Assembly (NCBI GenBank): GCA_045540295.1
Contig: JAZQGY010000029.1
Coordinates: forward strand, 22,401 to 86,400
Direction: 5' to 3'
Length of the DNA stretch: 64,000 nucleotides
From: Clostridia bacterium
GTDB lineage: Bacteria > Bacillota > Clostridia > UMGS1840
Under the pieces are notes generated by a model. That model was not told where the DNA came from, ran no database searches, and saw nothing but the letters and a program-made list of their open reading frames with translations. Positions within the stretch are counted from its first letter, which is position 1, and each line of letters starts with the position of its first letter. The position numbers and the translations under genes were made by a program. This document shows, piece by piece, positions 15,942-59,229 of this stretch.

Positions 15942-16946
15942 TTAAAACAATTTCAAGTTTTCTTTTGATAAGGTAAGATGTCCTTGTTCTGCTTTTTTAA
16001 TAATTTCGGTGATTTTGTCATTGATAGGAGTGGGAATACCGTATTGTTTACCCCATTGGCAAACAATACCGTTAATGGCGTTGACTTCACAGGGCTTCTT
16101 CTTTTTCAAATCCTGAAGCATTGAGGGTTCGATATTGCGATGCTTTTTCATAGCAATTGGTAAAAGAAGGGTAGCAAATGCACGTTTCAAGGCGTTCTTA
16201 TAGTAGAATAACGCAACAATATTTTTTCCTTGAACCGGTGCAAAAGTAATTCCGGCAGCATGCCCTACATCAATACATTCTTTCATACATCTGATGGCAA
16301 TTTTTTTAGCTTCTTTTCCTTCGGAAACGTCACCAAATAAACCTCCAATCACGGTGCCAAGACCTGAGAATGTGGCATTGATGAGTAATTTCGACCATCT
16401 TGCCCCCATTAAGTTTTCTTCAATATGAACCGGACACATCAGCTCCAGAAGTGTTTTCACTTCGTTGAGCATTTCCCGGGAAATACCCTCCATACCGCCC
16501 ATATGAAAGGAAAGACTTTCCGGATCACTGGTTAATGTGCAAATGCCCGGCTCTTGCAGGGTAGCACCCCATTCCACCACGCAACCCATCGTGCGGTTCG
16601 AACCGATAATGTCTGCAATTTCAGGTTCAGGAAGTCCGTTTTGAAGGGTGACCAGTACACCGTTCTCAGAGAGAAAATCCTTTAAAAAAGTGACCACTTC
16701 ACGGTTATAAAGTTGTTTGGTCAAAAGTAGAATAATATCATACTTTCCCGTCATTTCATCCGGAGTAAGAGCGGAAACAGGAATGTTGATATTCACGGTT
16801 CCGTTGATTGTAGCACCGTTTTTCTGCAAAGCTTCCACATGAGCTTTGTTGCGGTTAATCAAGTCAATTTTACCGCCGTTTTTTGTAATGTAAGCACCTA
16901 AAACCGTTCCCAGGCTTCCGGCACCGTATATTGCATATCGTCTCAT
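15942..16946 (-). CDS. 2-dehydropantoate 2-reductase family (ApbA/PanE) oxidoreductase
   Basis: N-terminal IYGAGSLGTVLG Rossmann motif. 334-aa two-domain layout typical of ApbA/PanE. Confidence 0.7.
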   Translation of the reverse strand: MRRYAIYGAGSLGTVLGAYITKNGGKIDLINRNKAHVEALQKNGATINGTVNINIPVSALTPDEMTGKYDIILLLTKQLYNREVVTFLKDFLSENGVLVTLQNGLPEPEIADIIGSNRTMGCVVEWGATLQEPGICTLTSDPESLSFHMGGMEGISREMLNEVKTLLELMCPVHIEENLMGARWSKLLINATFSGLGTVIGGLFGDVSEGKEAKKIAIRCMKECIDVGHAAGITFAPVQGKNIVALFYYKNALKRAFATLLLPIAMKKHRNIEPSMLQDLKKKKPCEVNAINGIVCQWGKQYGIPTPINDKITEIIKKAEQGHLTLSKENLKLF

Positions 16947-17065: not shown

Positions 17066-19366
17066 TTATTTGCTTTTTTCCAGGTCTCTGTTTCTGATTT
17101 CAACACGGCGAACTTTTCCGCTGATTGTTTTGGGAAGTTCTTCCACAAATTCAACAATTCTGGGATATTTGTAAGGTGCAGTGTGAGTTTTTACATATTC
17201 CTGAATTTCTTTTTTCAGCTCATCGGTGCCTTCAGTGCCTTTTACCAGCACAATGGTAGCTTTCACAATTTGACCGCGCACTTCATCGGGAACAGGAGTG
17301 ATTGCACATTCCAAAACATAAGGGAGTTCCATGATAACGCTTTCGATTTCAAAAGGCCCGATACGATAGCCGGAGGATTTGATAACATCGTCGATTCTGC
17401 CAACATACCAAAGGTAGCCATCTTCGTCCATAGTTGCCTGGTCACCGGTATGATAGTAACCGTCGTGCCATACTTCATTGGTTTTTTCATCATCTAAGTA
17501 GTAGCCGATAAACAGCCCGCAGGGGATGTTATCCTTCACCCGGATACAGATTTCACCGGTATCACCGGTTTTACATTCGTTTCCGTCAGGATCCAGAACC
17601 ACAACATCGTACAACGGACTGGGACGTCCCATAGAACCGATTTTTGGAGTGGAACCGACAAAGTTTGCAATGGACAGGGTAGTTTCGGTCTGGCCGAAGC
17701 CTTCCATAATGGTCAGACCGGTAGCTTTTTTAAACTGATTGAACACTTCCGGGTTTAATGCTTCGCCGGCAGTGGTTGCATATTCAATGGAAGAAAGATC
17801 GTATTTTGATAAATCTTCTTTAATGAAGAAGCGATACATGGTGGGAGGTGCACAGAAGGTTGTGATGTGATATTTCTGGAACATAGGTAAGATGTCTTCA
17901 GAATGGAAACGGTCAAAGTCGTAAGTGAACTGTGCTGCTTCACAGAGCCACTGTCCGTATAGCTTGCCCCACAGTGCTTTTCCCCAGCCGGTATCGGAAA
18001 TGGTGAAATGCAGACCGTCCGGATTCACATTGTGCCAATGCTTGGCAGTGGGGTAGTGACCTAAAGCATATTTGTAGGAATGGGTTGCGATTCTGGGATA
18101 ACCTGTGGTACCGGAGGTAAAGAGCATCAGCATAGGATCGTTTCCGCAGGGAGTGTTTTCCGTTCTGAAATAATGTGTGCTGAAACGTTCCATTTCCACA
18201 TTAAAATCATGCCAGCCTTCTTTACAGCCGCCGACTAACACTTTTACCATACCGGGGTAATTTGCAGCCGCTTTTTCAGCTTCTGCAGATACATCACCGT
18301 CTGCTGTGCAAACGATTGCTTTTACTTTTGCTGCTTTATATCTGTAATCAAAATCGTGTTCTACAAGCTGATTGGTTGCAGGGATTGCGATTGCTCCGAT
18401 TTTATGCAGTGCCAGCATACAGAACCAGAATTGGTAGTGACGTTTTAATACCAGCATTACGGTATCGCCTTTTTTGATGCCTAAGGATTCAAAATAGTTT
18501 GCAGTTTTTGCAGAATATTTTTTCATATCGCTGAAGGTGAAACGTCTGTCAGTTTTATCGTTTGCAACCCACATCATTGCCAGTTTGTCAGGATCCTTTT
18601 TGGCAATAGCATCCACACAGTCAAATGCGAAATTGAATTTATCTTCGTTTTTGAAGGTGATGCCGTTAAATACACCGTTTTCGTCGTAAGAGGATTCGAT
18701 AAAATTATCGGCAACTGTTTTCTTTTCAGCTTCTTTTGCTTTTGCTGCTTTTGCTGCAATGAAGGGGGCTTCAGGATATTCTTCGGAGAAATGTCCGTCC
18801 TGGGGATTTAAAACTACAGCGTGAAATTCGCATCCGCCTTCTGATGCAGCAATCATTCCGTGGGGAATGATACTGTTATAAAAAATGGAATCTCCTTCGT
18901 GCAACACGTCAATGTGATTGCCGACTTGCACTTTTAAAGAACCTTTCACAATAACGTCAAATTCCTGTCCGTTATGGGAATTCAGCTTGATGGGAGCGTT
19001 TTGTTCTTCAGCAAGGTAAGGGAATTTAACCAAAAACGGTTCTGCCAGCTTTTCTTTGAATTTCGGTGCTAAGTTGTTATACACAACACCTTGCTTTTTA
19101 ATAATTTTTAATCCTTCGCCTTTTCTGGTGATGGCAAAGGAGGTAAGGGTAGTGGAGGTTCCTTCTAATAAGTCTACTACCTCAACTCCGCAGGCCTTGG
19201 CACATTTGTAAATAAATGTGAAGGAAAAATCGGTTTCGCCCTGTTCCAAAAGCAGATAGTCTTCTTTTGAAACACCTGTCAGTTTTGCTAATTCCTCGGG
19301 GGTGTAGCCCTTTGCTTCACGTAGGTCTTTGATTCTTCCTGCGACTTCTTTCAAATTGTAGTCCAT
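17066..19366 (-). CDS. fusion protein: XRE-type HTH + cupin + AMP-forming medium/short-chain acyl-CoA synthetase
   Basis: Residues about 5-65 are HTH (GYTPEELAKLTGVSKEDYLLLEQG). Residues about 125-190 are cupin (GQEFDVIVKGSLKVQVG...GDSIFYNSIIPHG). The remainder has adenylate-forming motifs TSGTTGYPR, YHTGD, GRIDDVIKSSGYRIGP and PKTISGKVRR. ATG at 19366 follows GGAGAC. Confidence 0.82.
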   Translation of the reverse strand: MDYNLKEVAGRIKDLREAKGYTPEELAKLTGVSKEDYLLLEQGETDFSFTFIYKCAKACGVEVVDLLEGTSTTLTSFAITRKGEGLKIIKKQGVVYNNLAPKFKEKLAEPFLVKFPYLAEEQNAPIKLNSHNGQEFDVIVKGSLKVQVGNHIDVLHEGDSIFYNSIIPHGMIAASEGGCEFHAVVLNPQDGHFSEEYPEAPFIAAKAAKAKEAEKKTVADNFIESSYDENGVFNGITFKNEDKFNFAFDCVDAIAKKDPDKLAMMWVANDKTDRRFTFSDMKKYSAKTANYFESLGIKKGDTVMLVLKRHYQFWFCMLALHKIGAIAIPATNQLVEHDFDYRYKAAKVKAIVCTADGDVSAEAEKAAANYPGMVKVLVGGCKEGWHDFNVEMERFSTHYFRTENTPCGNDPMLMLFTSGTTGYPRIATHSYKYALGHYPTAKHWHNVNPDGLHFTISDTGWGKALWGKLYGQWLCEAAQFTYDFDRFHSEDILPMFQKYHITTFCAPPTMYRFFIKEDLSKYDLSSIEYATTAGEALNPEVFNQFKKATGLTIMEGFGQTETTLSIANFVGSTPKIGSMGRPSPLYDVVVLDPDGNECKTGDTGEICIRVKDNIPCGLFIGYYLDDEKTNEVWHDGYYHTGDQATMDEDGYLWYVGRIDDVIKSSGYRIGPFEIESVIMELPYVLECAITPVPDEVRGQIVKATIVLVKGTEGTDELKKEIQEYVKTHTAPYKYPRIVEFVEELPKTISGKVRRVEIRNRDLEKSK

Positions 19367-19421
19367 TGTTCTGTCTCCTTTCATTTTCGTGAACGAATCG
19401 TGTTACGAATTTGAATAAAAC

Positions 19422-19680
19422 AAAAAAACTCGTCTCAAACACACTTTGAGACGAGTTTTAATAACCCGCGGTACCACTCAAATTACGGAAAAAATCCGTC
19501 ACTTACCGGGCTCTATCAAGCCCTTTGCCTTAACGCAGCAATACGGAAGGAGCCTACTCATAAACACTTTCGGTCCTCCGACTCAGAGGTGATAAGCCAT
19601 TGGAATGCATCCCCATTGCCTCGCACCAACCGGCAACTCTCTCCAGGTTCTTCAATCCGACCGTCCTCGTCACAGTCGTT
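19422..19680 (-). promoter_or_regulatory. T-box riboswitch leader (apparent specifier AUC, Ile)
   Basis: Minus strand carries a K-turn-like base, AG bay GGAGAGAG, distal loop GGTTGGTGCGAG and T-box sequence AATTTGAGTGGTACCGCGGG (19484-19463). Terminator is AAAACTCGTCTCAAA/TTTGAGACGAGTTTTTTT. Confidence 0.85.
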
Positions 19681-19704
19681 TTTGTGATATTCAAATTTGT
19701 CTGC

Positions 19705-19944: not shown

Positions 19945-22900
19945 ATGAAAATGAAAAAACTATTGAGTTTCAGCTTGGCAATGATCATGCTTTTAAGTTG
20001 CGTGTTCAGCCAGGTTGTTTTTGTTAGTGCACAAGGCGATGTAGTTGATTACAACGATGCTCCTTATGCAGGGGTGTACCAAGTAACTTCTGACAAAGCG
20101 GTTACTTTAACGAACGAAACCGGTCATACCGTTACCTTAGCAGCAGGTGAAACCGATTACTTTTACCTGATCAAAGGCAACAACAATATGACCATCAGCG
20201 ATGAAACCGCTGCCTTAACCTTCACTTCGTTAGACAATAACGGTCTGGATTACATTGGCGAAGTGGAAATGACCGAAGAACCCATTCTTCCCGGTGATAC
20301 CGGCGATGTGATTTCCGGCTTTGCCTATGTCACCTTAGCTCCCGGTGAAAAATACACTGCGACCTATACTCCGAGTGTTATTTCTGCAGGTCTGGTATAT
20401 CCTTACATTGCTCCTACTGCTGGCGCAGGCAATTCTGTTAGAGTATATACTGATACCGGTTACTATGCAGATGTGTACTTAGCTTATAACTACAGCTCTT
20501 CTGCGTGGGCAGATGCAGCAAGACAGCAGCCTTCTATGTTTTATGTAAGAGACGGCGCACAGGAAATCACTATTGAAAATATCGGTTCTTCCGCCGTTAC
20601 TTTCTACGCTGTTCAAATTAAGACTACCGGTGTATTGGCAGAAGCTGATTACTGGAAAGATCTGATGAACATGGCTTCTCTGAAAGTGTATGAAGAAGAC
20701 TTTGATCCTCAGGCTACTCCGGAACCGACTCCCGAGCCGACTCCGGAACCCACTCCGGAACCCACTCCCTCTGTTTATACTGACACCATCACCTACGTTG
20801 CAGCAGATGCAGGTGTTTACACTGTATCCTCCAACGTTGATGTTGCATTAAAGAGCGAACTGAATTCCGAAGTTACCTTAGCAGCAGGGGAAGAAGGCTA
20901 CATCTACTTAGTAAAAGGTCAAAACATCATTGAAACTACCGATGCTGATGCAGCATTAACCTTTACCCAGCTGGACAACAACGGTCTGGACTACATTGAT
21001 CAGATTACCGTAAATGACCAGTCCTTTGCACCCGGTGACGGCCATGCGCACACTGCTGTGTTCGAAACCTTAGAACCCGGCGATGTTTATACTATCGTTT
21101 TTGATACCGCAGTTGATGGTAATTGGAATGGTATGGTATATCCCTACATCCTCACCGGAAATGGCGCTACTTCCATGAAAATTACTACTGATACCGGTTT
21201 TTATGCAGAATTATCGAAACCCTCCGGCGGTAATAATATCTACGAAACTGTTGCAGGTAACGGAGATATCGAATATCTGTACTTAAGAGCAGGTAAAAAC
21301 GTAATTGCATTCGAAAACACCGGTGATGTGGCTTTCACACTCACCAGCATTTCTTTCAATAACCCCGGCGTTTTGGTAGATAAAGGAAACAATATCTGGA
21401 TTGAACAGTCTAAAGTTTCCAGCTTAAAACCCTACATCGGCGATGCTCCCGTATATGATTACGGTTACTTCCCGGAAGGCTGGGACGGCACTTTGGAAAA
21501 CCATCCCGACTACAATGCAGACGCAGAAGAACTGTTCCTGGACGGTTCCGCTCCCAACATGAGTTCCGAAGACGGTATGGAATTACTGGATACCGACTGG
21601 GGTTACAATGAAGATGAAGGTCCTGTTCTGGACAAAGGAAACGAAGGCGCAATCTTCTTGCCTGCAGGATCTTACGCAACCTACACCTTAAATAATATCC
21701 CTGAAACCGGTGTTTATGCAGTATTGGTTCGTTATGGTCAGGCAAGCTATACTACTGCGTCTCTGCAGCTGATCAACAATATTGACGGCAATGATTACTA
21801 TGCACAGTATGATATTGCGCCCATCGGCACTTGGAATGATACCTGGTCTTATAACAACGGCCATGACGATTTCCTGTATCTGCAGGAAGGCACCAATTAT
21901 CTGACTGCTTATAATGCAGGTCCCGGCAGCATTGTTTTCGATGCTTTTGACATTCTTGCATTAGTAGACGATACAGACTATGTGCAGTATGTTGGTACTG
22001 CCGATAATACCGCAGGTACTGATCCGGAAGGCTGGACCGGCTCTGTTGTTGGTTGGGAAAACTGGAATACTGCCATTAATCCTTATACCTACAGTGTTAC
22101 TCAGGCTACCGGTTATGATTCCTTAGTATATTATCCGCCTTATACTGAAGACGGTATGAGCTTATCCGATGAAATCTGGGTAAATTACACCGTTACCGCT
22201 CCCGAAGCAGGTATGTATCTGGTAGATGCAGAATATACCGGAACCCTTCATTTAGAAACTCAGACTGGCAATTTTGTAGATTACACTGCTACTTCTGCTG
22301 AATTACAGTACATCTACTTAGAAGAAGGCGATAACTTAATCACCGCGACCGGTGAAAACGGTTCTGTATTAACTTCTGCAAGCTTCTATCAGCTGAATAA
22401 TTCTGATGATTATTTAGAACAGGGGCAGAATTCCAACACCGTTCCCGAAGAAGCATACGATTTAGTAATTAATCCCTACAAAGATATGGCGGATTCCACC
22501 GGTTATTGGAAAAAGTACGAATACGATACCACTAACAATGCAGTTGTTCAGGGTGCAGGATCTGTATTAAAATACGAATTGAACGTTCTGTTCCCTGGCA
22601 TTTATAGAGTCCAGGCAAAAATCGGCGGTACTGTTACCCTGGATAACCTGCCCATTATCACCATTGATACTGATGCTGGCGACGGTTACCGTGCAGAATT
22701 GGCAACCGAAGAAGTACAAGACCACGGTGCTGTAAGAGCAACTGACTCCGAAGGCAACTATCAGTATGTATACTTAAAAGAAGGCATCAACCATATCGAA
22801 GTTGCCGCAGGATCTATTCACCACGTACTGTGGAACGTTGAATTCAAACTGCTGACACCGGAAGAAGAAGCAACCATCACCATGGATGATTGTAAGCTGA

Positions 22901-24267
22901 CTCCCCCCAGACCGATTGTAATCAATCCCTACACTGATTCTATCATTGGCACCCAGGATGTGGATTACCACATGATTCCCGGTCGTGTTTCGGAAGATAA
23001 ACCTTCTTTAGGTTCTTCCTTCGGTACTCAGTTAATCACCGGAGAATGGCAGAGATTTGAAGTGGATGCAAAAGTTGCAGGTACCTATCAGATTACTACC
23101 ACTGCAGCAGTTTATGACAACCCGGCTAAAATTGCTGTGGAAACTGTTGATTCCTACGGTTATACTCAGCATAATGCAAGTCCCGATAACTACATCTCCG
23201 AAGATGGCACCTATATTACCTTAAAAGAAGGTGTAAACTCTGTTTGGGTACGTAACGAAGGTGCCGGCTGGATCTACTTACAGTCCATCACCTTAACCTA
23301 TGTGGAAGATGATTCCGAAGTTACCCCCAGCGCATTTGTTCTGGCTCAGAACTACATCGGTGCATCCCAGGATCCTCAGCAGATTCCGGAATATACCGTA
23401 AGAAACAACTTACCCGGTATTCACATTGCAGATATTACTAACAGCGCTGCAGACACTCTGACCTATCAGTACAATGTAACCATTCCGTCAGACGATTTCT
23501 ATGGTATCGTTATGACCGGTACCGTTCCGCTGACTCCCACCATGAAAATCACTTTGGAAGACGGTGTGAACGATGCAATCGTTATGATGGACGGTGAACC
23601 TCCGTATTTCGGTAATGAAAACGAAGTAAACAGTGTAACCGTTACTCCGGAAAAAGTATTTTTACCGGCTGGTGAGTACACCATGACCGTTACTCTGACC
23701 GAAAATATTGATGCAGGCACTGCAACCGATATGATGTCTCATATTCACGGTTTTGAATTCACCACTTTAACCCGTCAGGATTTATTCTTAGTTGCGATGC
23801 AGTCTGCAGAAACCACCGACGATATCGCTGCTGCTTTAGCAGAATTCAAAGATGTTATCACTTCCGAAATTTCAACAACTCCGGAAACTGACTTCATCTA
23901 TCCTGAATATGCATACAACGCTCTGTTGAACTGTGCAATGTTGGAAAGCGGTGCATATGAAACCTATGAAGACGTGAAAACTGCATATGACTTTGCGAAA
24001 AACATGATTTCTTTTGCAGACGACGGTTCCGGTAACCTGGTTTATACCGTTCAGGTTGGTGACTGGAACGAAACCGCAACCGTTTTAGTTGCAGTTTACA
24101 CCGGCGATCGGTTATACATGATGGGCGAAGGATACTTAGAATATGAAGAAGCTACCGGTTCTTATGTACCTGTAGAAGCTACCTTATATGATTACAACCC
24201 CGAAGACGGTGACGTAATTAAAGTATTCATCTGGGATAGCTTTGACGGTTTAAAACCTGTATTCTAA
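19945..24267 (+). CDS. large secreted multi-module protein (about 7-9 CBM-like beta-sandwich modules, no recognisable catalytic domain)
   Basis: Signal peptide MKMKKLLSFSLAMIMLLSCVFSQVVFVSA|QG. Recurrent Y-x-Y-L-x-E-G-x-N-x-I motif roughly every 150 aa. TPEP linker. GGAGAT RBS. Confidence 0.8.
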   Translation: MKMKKLLSFSLAMIMLLSCVFSQVVFVSAQGDVVDYNDAPYAGVYQVTSDKAVTLTNETGHTVTLAAGETDYFYLIKGNNNMTISDETAALTFTSLDNNGLDYIGEVEMTEEPILPGDTGDVISGFAYVTLAPGEKYTATYTPSVISAGLVYPYIAPTAGAGNSVRVYTDTGYYADVYLAYNYSSSAWADAARQQPSMFYVRDGAQEITIENIGSSAVTFYAVQIKTTGVLAEADYWKDLMNMASLKVYEEDFDPQATPEPTPEPTPEPTPEPTPSVYTDTITYVAADAGVYTVSSNVDVALKSELNSEVTLAAGEEGYIYLVKGQNIIETTDADAALTFTQLDNNGLDYIDQITVNDQSFAPGDGHAHTAVFETLEPGDVYTIVFDTAVDGNWNGMVYPYILTGNGATSMKITTDTGFYAELSKPSGGNNIYETVAGNGDIEYLYLRAGKNVIAFENTGDVAFTLTSISFNNPGVLVDKGNNIWIEQSKVSSLKPYIGDAPVYDYGYFPEGWDGTLENHPDYNADAEELFLDGSAPNMSSEDGMELLDTDWGYNEDEGPVLDKGNEGAIFLPAGSYATYTLNNIPETGVYAVLVRYGQASYTTASLQLINNIDGNDYYAQYDIAPIGTWNDTWSYNNGHDDFLYLQEGTNYLTAYNAGPGSIVFDAFDILALVDDTDYVQYVGTADNTAGTDPEGWTGSVVGWENWNTAINPYTYSVTQATGYDSLVYYPPYTEDGMSLSDEIWVNYTVTAPEAGMYLVDAEYTGTLHLETQTGNFVDYTATSAELQYIYLEEGDNLITATGENGSVLTSASFYQLNNSDDYLEQGQNSNTVPEEAYDLVINPYKDMADSTGYWKKYEYDTTNNAVVQGAGSVLKYELNVLFPGIYRVQAKIGGTVTLDNLPIITIDTDAGDGYRAELATEEVQDHGAVRATDSEGNYQYVYLKEGINHIEVAAGSIHHVLWNVEFKLLTPEEEATITMDDCKLTPPRPIVINPYTDSIIGTQDVDYHMIPGRVSEDKPSLGSSFGTQLITGEWQRFEVDAKVAGTYQITTTAAVYDNPAKIAVETVDSYGYTQHNASPDNYISEDGTYITLKEGVNSVWVRNEGAGWIYLQSITLTYVEDDSEVTPSAFVLAQNYIGASQDPQQIPEYTVRNNLPGIHIADITNSAADTLTYQYNVTIPSDDFYGIVMTGTVPLTPTMKITLEDGVNDAIVMMDGEPPYFGNENEVNSVTVTPEKVFLPAGEYTMTVTLTENIDAGTATDMMSHIHGFEFTTLTRQDLFLVAMQSAETTDDIAAALAEFKDVITSEISTTPETDFIYPEYAYNALLNCAMLESGAYETYEDVKTAYDFAKNMISFADDGSGNLVYTVQVGDWNETATVLVAVYTGDRLYMMGEGYLEYEEATGSYVPVEATLYDYNPEDGDVIKVFIWDSFDGLKPVF
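20716..20769 (+). repeat. 12-nt tandem repeat encoding a (TPEP)n linker
   Basis: actccggaaccg / actcccgagccg / actccggaaccc / actccggaaccc / actccc. Confidence 0.9.
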
Positions 24268-28185: not shown

Positions 28186-28220
28186 AAAAAAAGAGTGTTG
28201 CATTTGCAACACTCTTTTTT
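28186..28220. terminator. bidirectional intrinsic terminator (copy 1 of a repeated palindrome)
   Basis: AAAAAAAGAGTGTTGCATTTGCAACACTCTTTTTT. Confidence 0.85.
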
Positions 28221-28233
28221 ATGTGATAGCGAT

Positions 28234-28665
28234 TTACAGTTTATCAATATCTGCTTCGGTAATTAAGTGGAAGCCGGCTTTGGTTAAAGCATCTTCTGCT
28301 TTTTCGTTATCTGCCACTCTTAATACCACATAGGCGTGTTTTTCGGTTCTTGCCATAAATGCATACAGGTATTCCACATTGATATCTGCCTGGTCCAAAA
28401 CTTCCAGGGCGGAGGTGAGCTTACCGGGTTGGTCTCCGATTTTTACACCCACAACATCCACGGTTTTATAGAGGTGTTCCTGTTCTTGTAACACAGCTTC
28501 TGCGGTTTTCACATCGTTTACAATCAGACGCAGAATCCCGAAGGCTTCGGTTTCTGCAATAGAAAGCGCGCGAAGATTCACTCCATTTTTTGCTAAAACA
28601 TTGGTGATAGATGCTAAGCTACCTTTTTGATTTGCTAAAAATACAGTTAATTGCTTGATTGCCAT
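28234..28665 (-). CDS. ACT domain-containing protein (tandem ACT)
   Basis: 143 aa with two beta-alpha-beta-beta-alpha-beta-like halves (LTVFLANQKGSLASITNVL...). Typical partner of PaaK-like ligases. Confidence 0.72.
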   Translation of the reverse strand: MAIKQLTVFLANQKGSLASITNVLAKNGVNLRALSIAETEAFGILRLIVNDVKTAEAVLQEQEHLYKTVDVVGVKIGDQPGKLTSALEVLDQADINVEYLYAFMARTEKHAYVVLRVADNEKAEDALTKAGFHLITEADIDKL

Positions 28666-28683
28666 ATGAAAAACTCCTCTCTA

Positions 28684-29991
28684 TTACACTAATTTACGTT
28701 TGTCTACCACACGAACAGCTTTGCCTTCGCTTCGAACAATGGTTTTCGGTGCTACCAGATGTACTGCAGGATTGATGCCAAGCATGGTCTTCATTGCATT
28801 GGCAAGTGTTTTTTCCATTTTTAAAACTTCTGCAACTTTATCGGTGAACTGTTCGGGAGACATTTCTACGTGAACATCGAAGGTGTCGGTATTGTTCTTT
28901 CTGTCAACCAAGATTTGATAGTTGGGCTGATAGCCTTCGTTTAACAGAACGGTTTCAATCTGAGAGGGGAACACGTTCACGCCGCGGATAATCAGCATGT
29001 CGTCGGTTCTGCCCATAGGTTTCGCCATTTTTACCAAAGTTCTGCCACAGGAGCATTTTTTACGGGTCAGCACACAAATATCACGGGTTCTGTAACGGAG
29101 CAGGGGGAATGCTTCTTTATCCAAAGAGGTGAATACCAATTCGCCTTTTTCGCCTTCGGGAAGCACTTCTCCGGTATCGGGGTCAATAATTTCAGCATAG
29201 AAATGGTCTTCGTTGATATGCATACCGGTTTGTTCGCTACATTCAAATGCAACACCGGGGCCGGAGGTTTCGGTAAGACCGTAAATATCGTAAGCTTTAA
29301 TGCCCAGGGTTTCTTCAATATTGTGACGCATTTCTTCAGTCCAGGGTTCCGCACCGAAAATACCGGCTTTCAGAGGAATGTCTTCCGGCTTGTAGCCTTG
29401 TTCCTTTAAGGTTTCGCCAATATATGCCGCGTAAGAAGGAGTGCAGCATAGAATGGTTGCGCTAAGGTCATTCATAAACTGAATTTGACGCTCGGTGTTT
29501 CCGGAGGACATAGGTAGCGTTAAACATCCAACTTTATGTGAGCCACCGTTTAAGCCGGGGCCACCGGTAAACAGTCCGTAACCGTATGCAACCTGACAAA
29601 CATCCTTGTTGGTGCCGCCTGCTGCCGTAATTGCACGGGCACAGCAGTCTTCCCAGAGGTTCACGTCATTTTGAGTATAAAATGCTACCACACGGCGACC
29701 GGTTGTACCGGAGGTGGACTGAATACGCACACATTCGTCCAACGGTTTTGCTAACAGTCCGTAGGGATATGCATCTCTTAAATCTGCCTTGGTTAAGAAG
29801 GGAAGCTTATGTAAGTCTTCAATCCCTTTGATATCTTCGGGTTTCACGCCTTTTTCATCCATCAGATTACGGTAGTAAGCAACATTTTCGTAAACGTGTT
29901 TTACCTGCTTTACCAGTTTTTCTGATTGCAGTTTTTTCATGTCTTCGGGGTTCATGGTTTCAATTTCTTTTTGGTAGTAGTTCTGAGCCAT
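28684..29991 (-). CDS. paaK: phenylacetate--CoA ligase family protein (PaaK-like)
   Basis: 435 aa. Motifs: LPFLTKADLRDAYPYG, SSGTTG-type STSGTTGRRV, GLTETSGPG, and C-terminal RSEGKAVRVVDKR. Confidence 0.85.
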   Translation of the reverse strand: MAQNYYQKEIETMNPEDMKKLQSEKLVKQVKHVYENVAYYRNLMDEKGVKPEDIKGIEDLHKLPFLTKADLRDAYPYGLLAKPLDECVRIQSTSGTTGRRVVAFYTQNDVNLWEDCCARAITAAGGTNKDVCQVAYGYGLFTGGPGLNGGSHKVGCLTLPMSSGNTERQIQFMNDLSATILCCTPSYAAYIGETLKEQGYKPEDIPLKAGIFGAEPWTEEMRHNIEETLGIKAYDIYGLTETSGPGVAFECSEQTGMHINEDHFYAEIIDPDTGEVLPEGEKGELVFTSLDKEAFPLLRYRTRDICVLTRKKCSCGRTLVKMAKPMGRTDDMLIIRGVNVFPSQIETVLLNEGYQPNYQILVDRKNNTDTFDVHVEMSPEQFTDKVAEVLKMEKTLANAMKTMLGINPAVHLVAPKTIVRSEGKAVRVVDKRKLV

Positions 29992-30048
29992 TGGTCATCA
30001 TCCTTTCTTTTTTTGTGATTCTGGATTTCGGCTCACGCTTTTTAGAAT

Positions 30049-30327
30049 AAAAAAACGCCCTCCGCAATCCGTTATCGGATACAGAGGACGAAAATAACAT
30101 TTCCGTGGTACCACCTCAGTTCGTCGCTATCTCACGGTAGCGACCTTATCAGGTACTATCATACCTTAGTTCTATAACGGGAACACCCGTTGCATCCTAC
30201 TTAAAGATTTCTCTTGTTCAGTGCACTGCTAACAGAAGGAATTCGAGAAGGAAGATACCATTGTCTTGCACCAACCGACAACTCTCTTTGCGGCTCTTTC
30301 CAACCTACTGGTTTCTGCTCATCGCAT
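30049..30327 (-). promoter_or_regulatory. T-box riboswitch leader (apparent specifier UUC, Phe)
   Basis: Minus strand carries GCGATGAGCAGAA, S-turn AGTA/GAA, AG bay AAAGAGAG, distal loop GGTTGGTGCAAG and T-box ACTGAGGTGGTACCACGG (30120-30103). Terminator is CGTCCTCTGTATCCG...CGGATTGCGGAGGGCGTTTTTTT. Confidence 0.85.
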
Positions 30328-30349
30328 TTATTATTTAGTTGACACATTA

Positions 30350-30378
30350 ATTTTAGCACCATCATTTTCAAATGTCAA
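30350..30378 (-). promoter_or_regulatory. sigma-A promoter of the paaK T-box leader
   Basis: Minus strand TTGACA (30378-30373), 17-nt spacer, TAAAAT (30355-30350). Confidence 0.7.
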
Positions 30379-30411: not shown

Positions 30412-30446
30412 AAAAAAGAGTGTTGCAATTGCAACACTCTTTTTTT
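30412..30446 (-). terminator. intrinsic terminator (copy 2 of the repeated palindrome)
   Basis: AAAAAAGAGTGTTGCAATTGCAACACTCTTTTTTT. Ends the prsA-like/proS/membrane-protein unit. Confidence 0.85.
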
Positions 30447-47068: not shown

Positions 47069-47088
47069 AAAAAGAAAACACGTTATTT

Positions 47089-47170
47089 TCCCTACGTTGG
47101 CATTATCCAAATCAGGTTACGGGTTAAAGTGCAACACACTTACTCTCAGCCGACTTACGGTCAGCTCCCC
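47089..47170 (-). promoter_or_regulatory. TPP (THI-box) riboswitch aptamer
   Basis: Minus strand GGGGAGC...GGCTGAGAG...ACCCGTAACCTGATTTGGATAATGCCAACGTAGGGA matches the THI-box core (CTGAGA, ACCTGAT, GGATAATGCC, GCGTAGGGA-like). Confidence 0.9.
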
Positions 47171-47207
47171 AAATCTTTTTCATTTTAGTATTTCGAAATA
47201 CAAGTGC

Positions 47208-51632: not shown

Positions 51633-51650
51633 TCTTTTAAACTTAATAGA

Positions 51651-51728
51651 CGGGAGCTTGTAGTACAGGCTGAGAGGAAGGTGTAACCTTCGACCGACAA
51701 CCTGATTTGGATAATGCCAACGTAGGGA
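51651..51728 (+). promoter_or_regulatory. TPP (THI-box) riboswitch aptamer
   Basis: CGGGAGC...GGCTGAGAGGAAGG...ACCTTCGACCGACAACCTGATTTGGATAATGCCAACGTAGGGA. Confidence 0.9.
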
Positions 51729-51769
51729 TGCCTAAGACACTTGGTGTCAGGAGGAACAGTGCAATTTAT

Positions 51770-58964: not shown

Positions 58965-59229
58965 GTATGCGAGGAAAATGTGTCAGTAGTCTGTATTTGA
59001 TTCCCAAAAGAGAAGGAAGTCATCGGCTGGAAGCTTCCGGGATAGGATAATGGATGAATTTCAGCATTGGAGTATTCTGCGAAAGTTCTGTTTTAGAATA
59101 TAAGCAGGGTGTTATGTCTCACGCCAAAAGATATTAAAAGTGCAAGGTTTTCTTTTGTAAAAAACTTTGAATTTGGGTGGTACCGCGGGTTAGCAGCTCG
59201 TCCCTTAACGGTGACGGAGCTGTTTTTTT
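58965..59229 (+). promoter_or_regulatory. T-box riboswitch leader, Phe specifier (UUC-A)
   Basis: Stem I with AGTA/GAA S-turn. GAATTTCA specifier region (TTC at 59060-59062). T-box ATTTGGGTGGTACCGCGGG (59171-59189). Terminator CAGCTCGTC...GACGGAGCTG+TTTTTTT. Lies upstream of pheS. Confidence 0.88.

Follow-up and report, generated by a model that had tools for sequence, protein, structure and literature searches.

A T-box leader with an apparent phenylalanine specifier upstream of a PaaK-like ligase and ACT-domain operon in a Clostridia bacterium

The promoter, T-box leader and genes of the operon

The minus strand of a 64,000-nt stretch of DNA from a Clostridia bacterium (Bacillota; Clostridia; UMGS1840; assembly GCA_045540295.1, contig JAZQGY010000029.1, positions 22,401–86,400 of the forward strand), referred to here as the window, carries a transcription unit composed, in order, of a promoter, a T-box leader RNA, a gene for a PaaK-like ligase, a gene for a protein with a pair of ACT domains and a terminator. 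An initial annotation made from the sequence alone had read the leader as a T-box with an apparent Phe (UUC) specifier and had proposed that uncharged tRNA-Phe induces phenylacetate activation for Phe synthesis. For comparison, we used 80 loci from species-level genomes that encode the same ligase at 80–93% identity, mostly metagenome-assembled genomes of Acutalibacteraceae and Oscillospiraceae from ruminant and other guts. The features of the unit, in window coordinates, are as follows.

30350–30378, minus strand: sigma-70-type promoter, the best promoter-like site of the region; −35 TTGACA at 30378–30373, 17-nt spacer, −10 TAAAAT at 30355–30350 with a TG extension, 11/12 consensus matches
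30081–30331, minus strand: T-box leader with Stem I, Stem II, Stem IIA/B, Stem III and antiterminator; RF00230 match over the full model (1–219) at 112.9 bits (gathering score 93), E = 3.6e-24
30228–30325, minus strand: Stem I; K-turn region GCGAUGAG/UUAGC, with helix, S-turn, AG bulge and distal loop aligning to the consensus
30317–30313 and 30237–30233, minus strand: lower helix of Stem I, CAGAA/UUCUG, covarying among orthologues
30309–30306 and 30244–30242, minus strand: S-turn, AGUA/GAA, aligned to RF00230
30287–30283, minus strand: AG bulge AGAGA, aligned to RF00230
30276–30265, minus strand: distal loop GGUUGGUGCAAG, aligned to RF00230
30239–30241, minus strand: probable specifier codon UUC (Phe), followed by C at 30238, the usual purine position; UUC in 33/34 orthologues
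30117–30103, minus strand: GAGGUGGUACCACGG, with the T-box sequence ACUGAGGUGGUACCACGG; invariant in 34/34 leaders
30107–30113, minus strand: T-box bulge UGGUACC (7 nt); UGGU at 30113–30110 can pair with a tRNA that ends in ACCA, with A73 as its discriminator
30084–30120, minus strand: antiterminator; A1 GAGG (30117–30114)/CCUC (30087–30084), A2 ACGGA/UUCGU; from RNAalifold columns 242–285 and the Rfam alignment
30049–30090, minus strand: intrinsic terminator CGUCCUCUGUAUCCG-AUAA-CGGAUUGCGGAGGGCG followed by U7 (30055–30049); minimum free energy of the segment −26.8 kcal/mol, z = −2.5
28684–29991, minus strand: PaaK-family arylacetate (phenylacetate)-CoA ligase, 435 aa; Pfam AMP-binding and AMP-binding_C_2
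28234–28665, minus strand: ACT-domain-pair protein, 143 aa, 18 nt past paaK; PF19571 (ACT_8), 76.2 bits against 23.5, residues 1–140, both repeats
28186–28220, minus strand: operon-end terminator, a palindromic hairpin AAAAAAGAGUGUUGCAAAUGCAACACUCUUUUUUU seen in the sequence
30412–30445, minus strand: near-identical palindromic terminator closing the upstream proS unit, a second copy of the operon-end hairpin

The leader at 30081–30331 is certainly a T-box, and an ordinary, feature-complete and transcription-attenuating member of the family, for which the RF00230 gathering score of 93 bits served as the membership threshold. Beyond Stem I, it has Stem II, which bears an S-turn of its own, as well as the Stem IIA/B element ACGGGUGUUCCCGUUA and Stem III. 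The Stem I elements named by the initial annotation (GCGAUGAG, AGUA, AGAGA and GGUUGGUGCAAG) were confirmed in the sequence, its TTGACA-17-TAAAAT promoter at 30378–30350 was borne out with 11/12 matches and the TG extension, the T-box and the terminator with T7 were found, and the paaK-like and ACT genes lie at the coordinates it had given. Orthologous leaders in two relatives (L024 and L043) are preceded by the same type of promoter (TTGACA/TTGACT-17-TAAAAT with TG). The 5' arm of the terminator overlaps the 3' strand of the antiterminator, with CCUC common to both structures, and the 3' end of the hairpin and U7 tract lies 57 nt ahead of the start codon. Translational control by the T-box was rejected because this strong terminator with U7 is present.

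Leaders in the relatives were sought with an nhmmer profile of paaK leaders, and the consensus structure was obtained with RNAalifold from 34 sequences: the window and 33 relatives with an alignable copy directly upstream of paaK. Compensatory changes occur at 27 of the 54 consensus pairs, and the lower helix of Stem I alone appears as CAGAA/UUCUG, CAAGA/UCUUG, CGGGA/UCCUG, CGGAA/UUCCG and CGAAA/UUUCG. Because 27 helix pairs have been kept by compensatory changes across 34 species-level genomes, the leader appears to be under purifying selection. One further leader, in L009 (681–1018), is not in the alignment: a stretch of N interrupts its Stem I, roughly 100 nt are inserted into its Stem II, and its profile match falls into two parts.

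The ligase is homologous over its full length to Burkholderia cenocepacia PaaK1 (2Y27; E = 5e-124, residues 9–433) and PaaK2 (2Y4O; E = 3e-122) and to a ligase from Bacteroides thetaiotaomicron (4R1L; E = 5e-119). It scored 536.2 bits against TIGR02155, the PaaK equivalog model, which is under the cutoff of 646.3; it is therefore filed as a member of the PaaK family with a predicted substrate, most likely phenylacetate. The ACT-pair gene directly follows paaK in 70/80 related loci (PaaK was called in 76), and its product is homologous to 2F06, an uncharacterized B. thetaiotaomicron protein (E = 7e-22). Most likely, this protein binds an amino acid and serves the ligase, or the oxidoreductase described below, as a regulatory partner.

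Linkage with indolepyruvate oxidoreductase and proposed role of the operon

Clustering of every open reading frame adjoining paaK in the 80 loci identified IorA (574 aa; TIGR03336, 721 bits against 651) and IorB (190 aa; NF005325, 280 bits against 230) of indolepyruvate:ferredoxin oxidoreductase (IOR) directly upstream of paaK in 38 loci, typically in the order (AMP-ligase)-iorA-iorB-paaK-ACT. Both proteins score above their NCBIfam cutoffs, and the linkage in these relatives agrees with the association of PaaK with IOR in anaerobes that the initial annotation had given as background. In 8 of the 38 iorAB-linked loci, a promoter and T-box lie between iorB and paaK. The promoter/T-box/paaK/ACT module of 26 loci, among them the nearest relatives of the window, stands apart from iorAB in varying contexts.

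We propose that the operon is a Phe T-box unit that switches on the synthesis of Phe from phenylacetate. When Phe is scarce, uncharged tRNA-Phe would bind the leader, its GAA anticodon pairing with UUC and its free ACCA end with UGGU, and would thereby stabilize the antiterminator (GAGG...CCUC) at the expense of the terminator hairpin with U7, the stronger of the two; RNA polymerase would thus enter paaK-ACT only at low tRNA-Phe charging. The ligase would then convert environmental phenylacetate to phenylacetyl-CoA, IorAB, which may be encoded elsewhere in the genome, would reductively carboxylate this to phenylpyruvate using reduced ferredoxin and CO2, and a transaminase would complete the route to Phe. 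The ACT-pair protein would act as an amino-acid-binding regulator of the ligase or of IOR. A T-box is on when its amino acid is lacking, which argues for an anabolic role of the ligase. Phenylacetate is abundant in the rumen and hindgut. Phe is made from phenylacetate in rumen cultures (PMC7356843), and a 2026 study that assayed an IOR-linked AMP-forming enzyme of Bacteroides as an arylacetate-CoA ligase suggested an anabolic role (PMC13285125). We put the probability of the whole explanation at roughly 0.65; within it, what the ligase acts on, which way the flux runs and what the ACT protein does are predictions.

Sensing of tRNA-Phe could also occur without a dedicated phenylacetate-to-Phe route. 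The enzyme could be a broad arylacetate/acyl-CoA ligase with a part in several aromatic amino acid routes or in some other process that depends on CoA, or the key Phe-related product could be the ACT protein. The ligase score below the PaaK equivalog cutoff fits such a role and weighs against the proposed one. The absence of the expected partner does so as well: no iorAB was found in the 64-kb window (by Pfam and NCBIfam on large open reading frames and by tblastn with IorA and IorB of the relatives), and none lies within 4 kb of the module in the 26 closest T-box-bearing relatives. The oxidoreductase that the initial annotation had looked to is thus missing from the window and present next to paaK in 38 of the 80 related loci. 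A broad role is also consistent with the use of phenylacetate, hydroxyphenylacetate and indoleacetate by the IOR-linked ligases of Bacteroides and C. difficile (PMC13285125), with a Tyr-codon T-box on a neighboring transporter in L004 and L019, and with the occurrence of paaK-ACT without any T-box in many close relatives. However, a T-box for a single amino acid normally reports the end product of the pathway it controls, the IOR linkage in 38/80 loci points to arylpyruvate chemistry, and the nearest characterized homologues are phenylacetate-specific PaaKs (PMC4498308). We consider this alternative unlikely and retain the synthesis of Phe from phenylacetate as the preferred explanation.

Alignable orthologous T-box leaders are present in 33 relatives, and the T-box is patchy among the loci. 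Many relatives at 80–88% identity have no T-box, and L021 has a plain promoter instead. At the RF00230 gathering score, no T-box was found in 15 more distant loci, and the leader-profile search found none in the remaining T-box-less loci. In most of these loci, the retrieved sequence does not extend past the start of the ior operon, and a leader may stand ahead of the operon as a whole. Since ior-paaK-ACT is widespread and the T-box patchy, T-box control appears to be a clade-restricted addition.

The module of the window has proS on one side and a SpoVB/MurJ-like gene on the other and is flanked by twin 34-nt palindromes, AAAAAAGAGTGTTGCAA(T/A)TGCAACACTCTTTTTT. Just two copies occur in the 64 kb, where the chance expectation is 0, and no copy was found in the 80 related loci; on these counts, the twin terminators were rejected as a common genomic repeat. 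The copy at 30412–30445 is predicted to shield the paaK promoter from proS read-through. The bracketing palindromes, along with the varied genomic settings in which relatives carry the module, hint that the promoter/T-box/paaK/ACT module has been relocated.

Register of the specifier codon

The initial annotation had described a specifier region CGAA-UUC-C immediately ahead of UUCUG, which pairs with CAGAA, and this layout was recovered with UUC at 30241–30239. Its caveat that the codon might instead be UCC (Ser), one base further on, proved to be real. When the window sequence was aligned alone, RF00230 placed GAAUUCCU ungapped on the eight-column loop GAAauuca, so that the codon slot holds UCC and the purine slot U (posterior ~0.8), which, taken literally, speaks against Phe. 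The orthologues carrying A after UUC gave UUC+A, and the Phe reading survives the covariance-model test once they are included. All 34 leaders read GAAU[U]C[A/C]U, with UUC in 33/34 and the subsequent U invariant. The base after UUC is A in 19/34 and C in 15/34, and never G or U. In the A-variants L024 and L004, RF00230 selects GAA-(deletion)-UUC-A and reads the additional a (5') and u (3') as inserted bases next to its 4-bp helix. The register chosen by the model shifts with the availability of an A for the purine column and therefore follows that A; since one register must hold for all orthologous leaders, it is the A-variants that are informative.

The consensus structure gives a similar picture. 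In the RNAalifold model of the 34 leaders, an invariant A (column 24) pairs with an invariant U (column 104) to close a 5-bp lower helix, and the next three pairs under it show compensatory AU/GC changes. With the closing pair formed, the 5' loop ACCAGUA has 7 nt, the consensus length, and the 3' loop GAAUUCN also has 7 nt. Leu leaders of the same lineage (L005, GAA-CUC-A followed by CCGC; L010, GAA-CUG-A followed by CCGC) have equal 7/7 loop geometry and a G-C-closed helix. In the alternative frame, these leaders would read UCA and UGA, the latter a stop codon. Since a Leu codon followed by A is the sole sensible reading upstream of LeuA-like genes, the geometry of GAA, codon and purine is in use in these genomes.

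The acceptor end of the tRNA points in the same direction. The discriminator base of bacterial tRNA-Phe is A73, and that of tRNA-Ser is G73. UGGU, which is present in 34/34 leaders, pairs with ACCA and so fits the A73 of tRNA-Phe and lacks a Watson-Crick match to the G73 of tRNA-Ser. Watson-Crick pairing between the T-box bulge and the NCCA end of the tRNA is established, as is the conservation of a purine directly after the specifier (PMC7583486).

Several observations weigh against Phe as the sensed amino acid. The window and 15/34 orthologues have C after UUC instead of the conserved purine, and the single-sequence alignment favors UCC. The closing A-U pair is invariant and thus gives no covariation signal, for or against. 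No tRNA-Phe or tRNA-Ser gene was found in the window or in 60 related loci. The paaK leader of L005 (3652–3902) has UGC (Cys) in place of UUC with UGGU kept; a variant introduced in assembly or sequencing, a switch that no longer works and a change of specificity are all possible readings. Finally, the shifted frame also yields tidy codons: UCC/UCA (Ser) for the paaK leaders and ACA (Thr, a related amino acid) for a paralogous leader.

Read in that frame, the element would be a Ser T-box with specifier UCC (UCA in relatives), GAA+1 register and a 4-bp lower helix, through which uncharged tRNA-Ser would control the ligase-ACT operon. Besides the tidy codons, the ungapped RF00230 alignment of C-variants (the window, L010 and L005), which shifts the codon slot one base past UUC, is consistent with this frame, as is the use of GAA+1 spacing or an 8–9-nt loop by the pheS and Ile leaders of the window; UCC and UCA are synonymous, and the A/C polymorphism is thus compatible with it. 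However, the base after the codon would then be an invariant U in 34/34 leaders where T-boxes conserve a purine (PMC7583486), and RF00230 itself takes UUC+A in the A-variants. The frame also needs an 8/8 loop in which an invariant, pairable A and U stay unpaired. Column 103 (window position 30238) has undergone at least ~11 A/C switches on a rough neighbor-joining tree of the leaders, each of which would be a change of tRNA-Ser isoacceptor. To this are added the mismatch of UGGU with G73, the GAA+0 frame in use in the Leu leaders with a stop codon in the other frame, and the lack of metabolic logic for Ser in front of an IOR-associated arylacetate ligase. A Ser specifier is accordingly very unlikely. 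A Ser or Ile (AUU) register was rejected on the same grounds. The evidence strongly suggests, and we regard it as very probable, that the leader senses tRNA-Phe through UUC. A remnant leader, decaying or terminating constitutively, in which the pyrimidine after the codon has weakened tRNA binding and regulation has been lost, would agree with the C in place of the conserved purine, the mutated codon of L005 and the patchy T-box among close relatives, but is highly improbable given structural elements that all score well (112.9 bits), 27 helix pairs maintained by compensatory changes in 34 species-level genomes, and a conserved, intact operon that a constitutive terminator would silence.

Neither reading frame accounts for the A/C alternation at column 103. 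Its frequency at a position described as a conserved purine makes it a small natural experiment on that T-box contact.

Other T-boxes of the window and comparison with known systems

Two further T-box leaders lie in the window, and other T-box leaders stand next to the paaK operon in relatives. Those of the window are as follows.

19444–19682, minus strand: Ile T-box, specifier AUC-A; RF00230, 93.9 bits
58963–59208, plus strand: pheS-pheT T-box leader, GAA-U-UUC-A; RF00230, 91 bits, just below the gathering score of 93; pheS and pheT downstream

The pheS leader, which the initial annotation had placed at 58965–59229 with GAAU-UUC-A, was found at nearly the same position with the loop GAA-U-UUC-A. 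At 91 bits, it falls under the gathering score and is therefore missed by a default scan, and most of the Stem IIA/B (CCGUUA) element is absent from it in the model alignment. It shares with the paaK leader the riboswitch class, the UUC codon, UGGU and the logic of terminator and antiterminator. The paaK leader differs in controlling an arylacetate-CoA ligase and an ACT protein, where the pheS leader controls the aminoacyl-tRNA synthetase, and in a 3' specifier loop of 7 nt (GAA-UUC-N) with C after the codon, compared to 8 nt (GAA-U-UUC-A) in pheS. The paaK leader is no recent duplicate of the pheS leader, as the paaK-leader profile gave no pheS match at E<1e-3.

The Ile leader heads a unit (17066–19682, minus strand) encoding a 772-aa protein in which HTH_3 and Cupin_2 are fused to an AMP-binding ligase; for the ligase, the best NCBIfam model was the branched-chain acyl-CoA (methylbutyryl-CoA) synthetase MbcS (453 bits, below cutoff). 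This suggests tRNA-Ile-gated activation of 2-methylbutyrate. A ketopantoate-reductase-family (ApbA/PanE) gene at 15942–16946 (minus strand) lies 120 nt downstream of the ligase and may share its unit. Divergent from the Ile operon is a 1440-aa open reading frame (19945–24267, plus strand) with no Pfam match at E<=1e-5 and no NCBIfam match at E<=1e-10.

Among the relatives, Leu T-boxes adjoin the paaK operon in L010 (5891–9303, plus strand, GAA-CUG-A) and L005 (3518–1, minus strand, GAA-CUC-A). They head a gene for a divergent LeuA-like protein of 462 aa, whose top-scoring models are without exception those of 2-isopropylmalate synthase; behind it lies a gene that joins a xylose-isomerase-like TIM barrel to an AMP-binding ligase, which may activate isovalerate. 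In L004 (1666–3540) and L019 (1688–3565), a leader with the Tyr codon GAA-UAC-A is a close paralogue of the paaK leader, scoring 155 and 140 bits on its profile; it precedes a 518-aa sodium:solute symporter (SSF), itself directly upstream of the paaK leader. The SSF family neighbors iorAB-paaK-ACT in 10 loci and stands immediately ahead of paaK in L011; the symporter is possibly an arylacetate importer. In L010, a sodium:alanine symporter gene two genes ahead of the paaK leader is preceded by a glycine riboswitch (1825–1916).

The Ile leader with its MbcS-like ligase, the Leu leaders with LeuA-like protein and ligase, and the Tyr leader with SSF lend support to the suggestion of the initial annotation that a T-box regulon governs acid-scavenging routes. 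A wider form of this idea, which we hold tentatively and at somewhat less than even odds, is that in hindgut and rumen Acutalibacteraceae and Oscillospiraceae cognate T-boxes form a family that governs the step at which carboxylic acids are activated or taken up for salvage routes feeding ferredoxin-dependent reductive carboxylation (PaaK-ACT for Phe, SSF for Tyr, the LeuA-like protein and TIM-barrel/AMP-ligase for Leu, the HTH-cupin-MbcS-like protein for Ile), with the specifier revealing the substrate of the ligase or transporter, IOR/VOR-linked ligases working anabolically, and the ACT pair serving as a Phe-sensing allosteric subunit. If true, the specifier codon would tell the physiological substrate of otherwise unassignable acyl-CoA ligases and transporters, IOR/VOR-linked AMP-forming ligases would run anabolically in these bacteria, and the ACT-pair protein would add feedback control by Phe at the enzyme level.

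Compared to the catalogued T-boxes of amino acid biosynthesis and transport operons, in which uncharged tRNA likewise switches on the supply of its own amino acid, the proposed paaK route is neither de novo synthesis nor uptake and would consist of the activation of a carboxylic acid for reductive carboxylation. The IOR and AMP-forming ligase system of B. thetaiotaomicron uses a ligase of the same family (that of 4R1L), and relatives of the window share its physical linkage with IorA/IorB. In the window, by contrast, the ligase is apart from iorAB, under a switch that probably responds to tRNA-Phe, and has an ACT-pair gene behind it. The direction of the Bacteroides system, from Phe to phenylacetate or the reverse, is debated (PMC13285125). 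PaaK1 and PaaK2 of B. cenocepacia share full-length homology and adenylate-forming phenylacetate-CoA ligation with the predicted enzyme; however, they are catabolic and belong to the paa cluster of aerobic degradation (PMC4498308), and no paaABCDE-type genes lie near the ligase of the window. The anabolic 2-oxoacid:ferredoxin oxidoreductase routes of methanogens and rumen bacteria follow the same proposed logic from acid to acyl-CoA, 2-oxoacid and amino acid (PMC7356843, PMC13285125). The paaK operon differs from them in having a sensor that would read the cognate tRNA on the activation step; we found no description of the control of those routes.

In the literature searched, no link was found between T-boxes and PaaK, phenylacetate or indolepyruvate/IOR genes; Wels 2008 and Sun 2013, with supplements, list none, and Vitreschak 2008 was outside this coverage. 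These leaders may already be present, without comment, in automated databases such as TBDB. What is new here is the target, a predicted phenylacetate-CoA ligase, as the riboswitch class itself is known. Since the 1960s, through Allison's work, the synthesis of Phe from phenylacetate and of branched-chain amino acids from volatile fatty acids has reportedly been a recognized trait of rumen and gut anaerobes; no description of the underlying genes and their control was found in the literature searched. A ligase that is on only with uncharged tRNA-Phe would provide regulatory evidence for the biosynthetic direction of IOR and arylacetate ligase, which the 2026 study left open (PMC13285125). Reading specifier codons may also offer a cheap substrate assignment for paralogous acyl-CoA ligases and transporters. 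The proposed route would bear on the production and consumption of phenylacetate, the precursor of phenylacetylglutamine, in the gut, and on the phenylacetate and branched-chain fatty acid needs of fiber-degrading rumen bacteria.

Outside the T-box units, the window contains two thiamine pyrophosphate (TPP) riboswitches above the gathering score, at 47072–47181 (minus strand, 62.0 bits) and 51642–51746 (plus strand, 58.8 bits).

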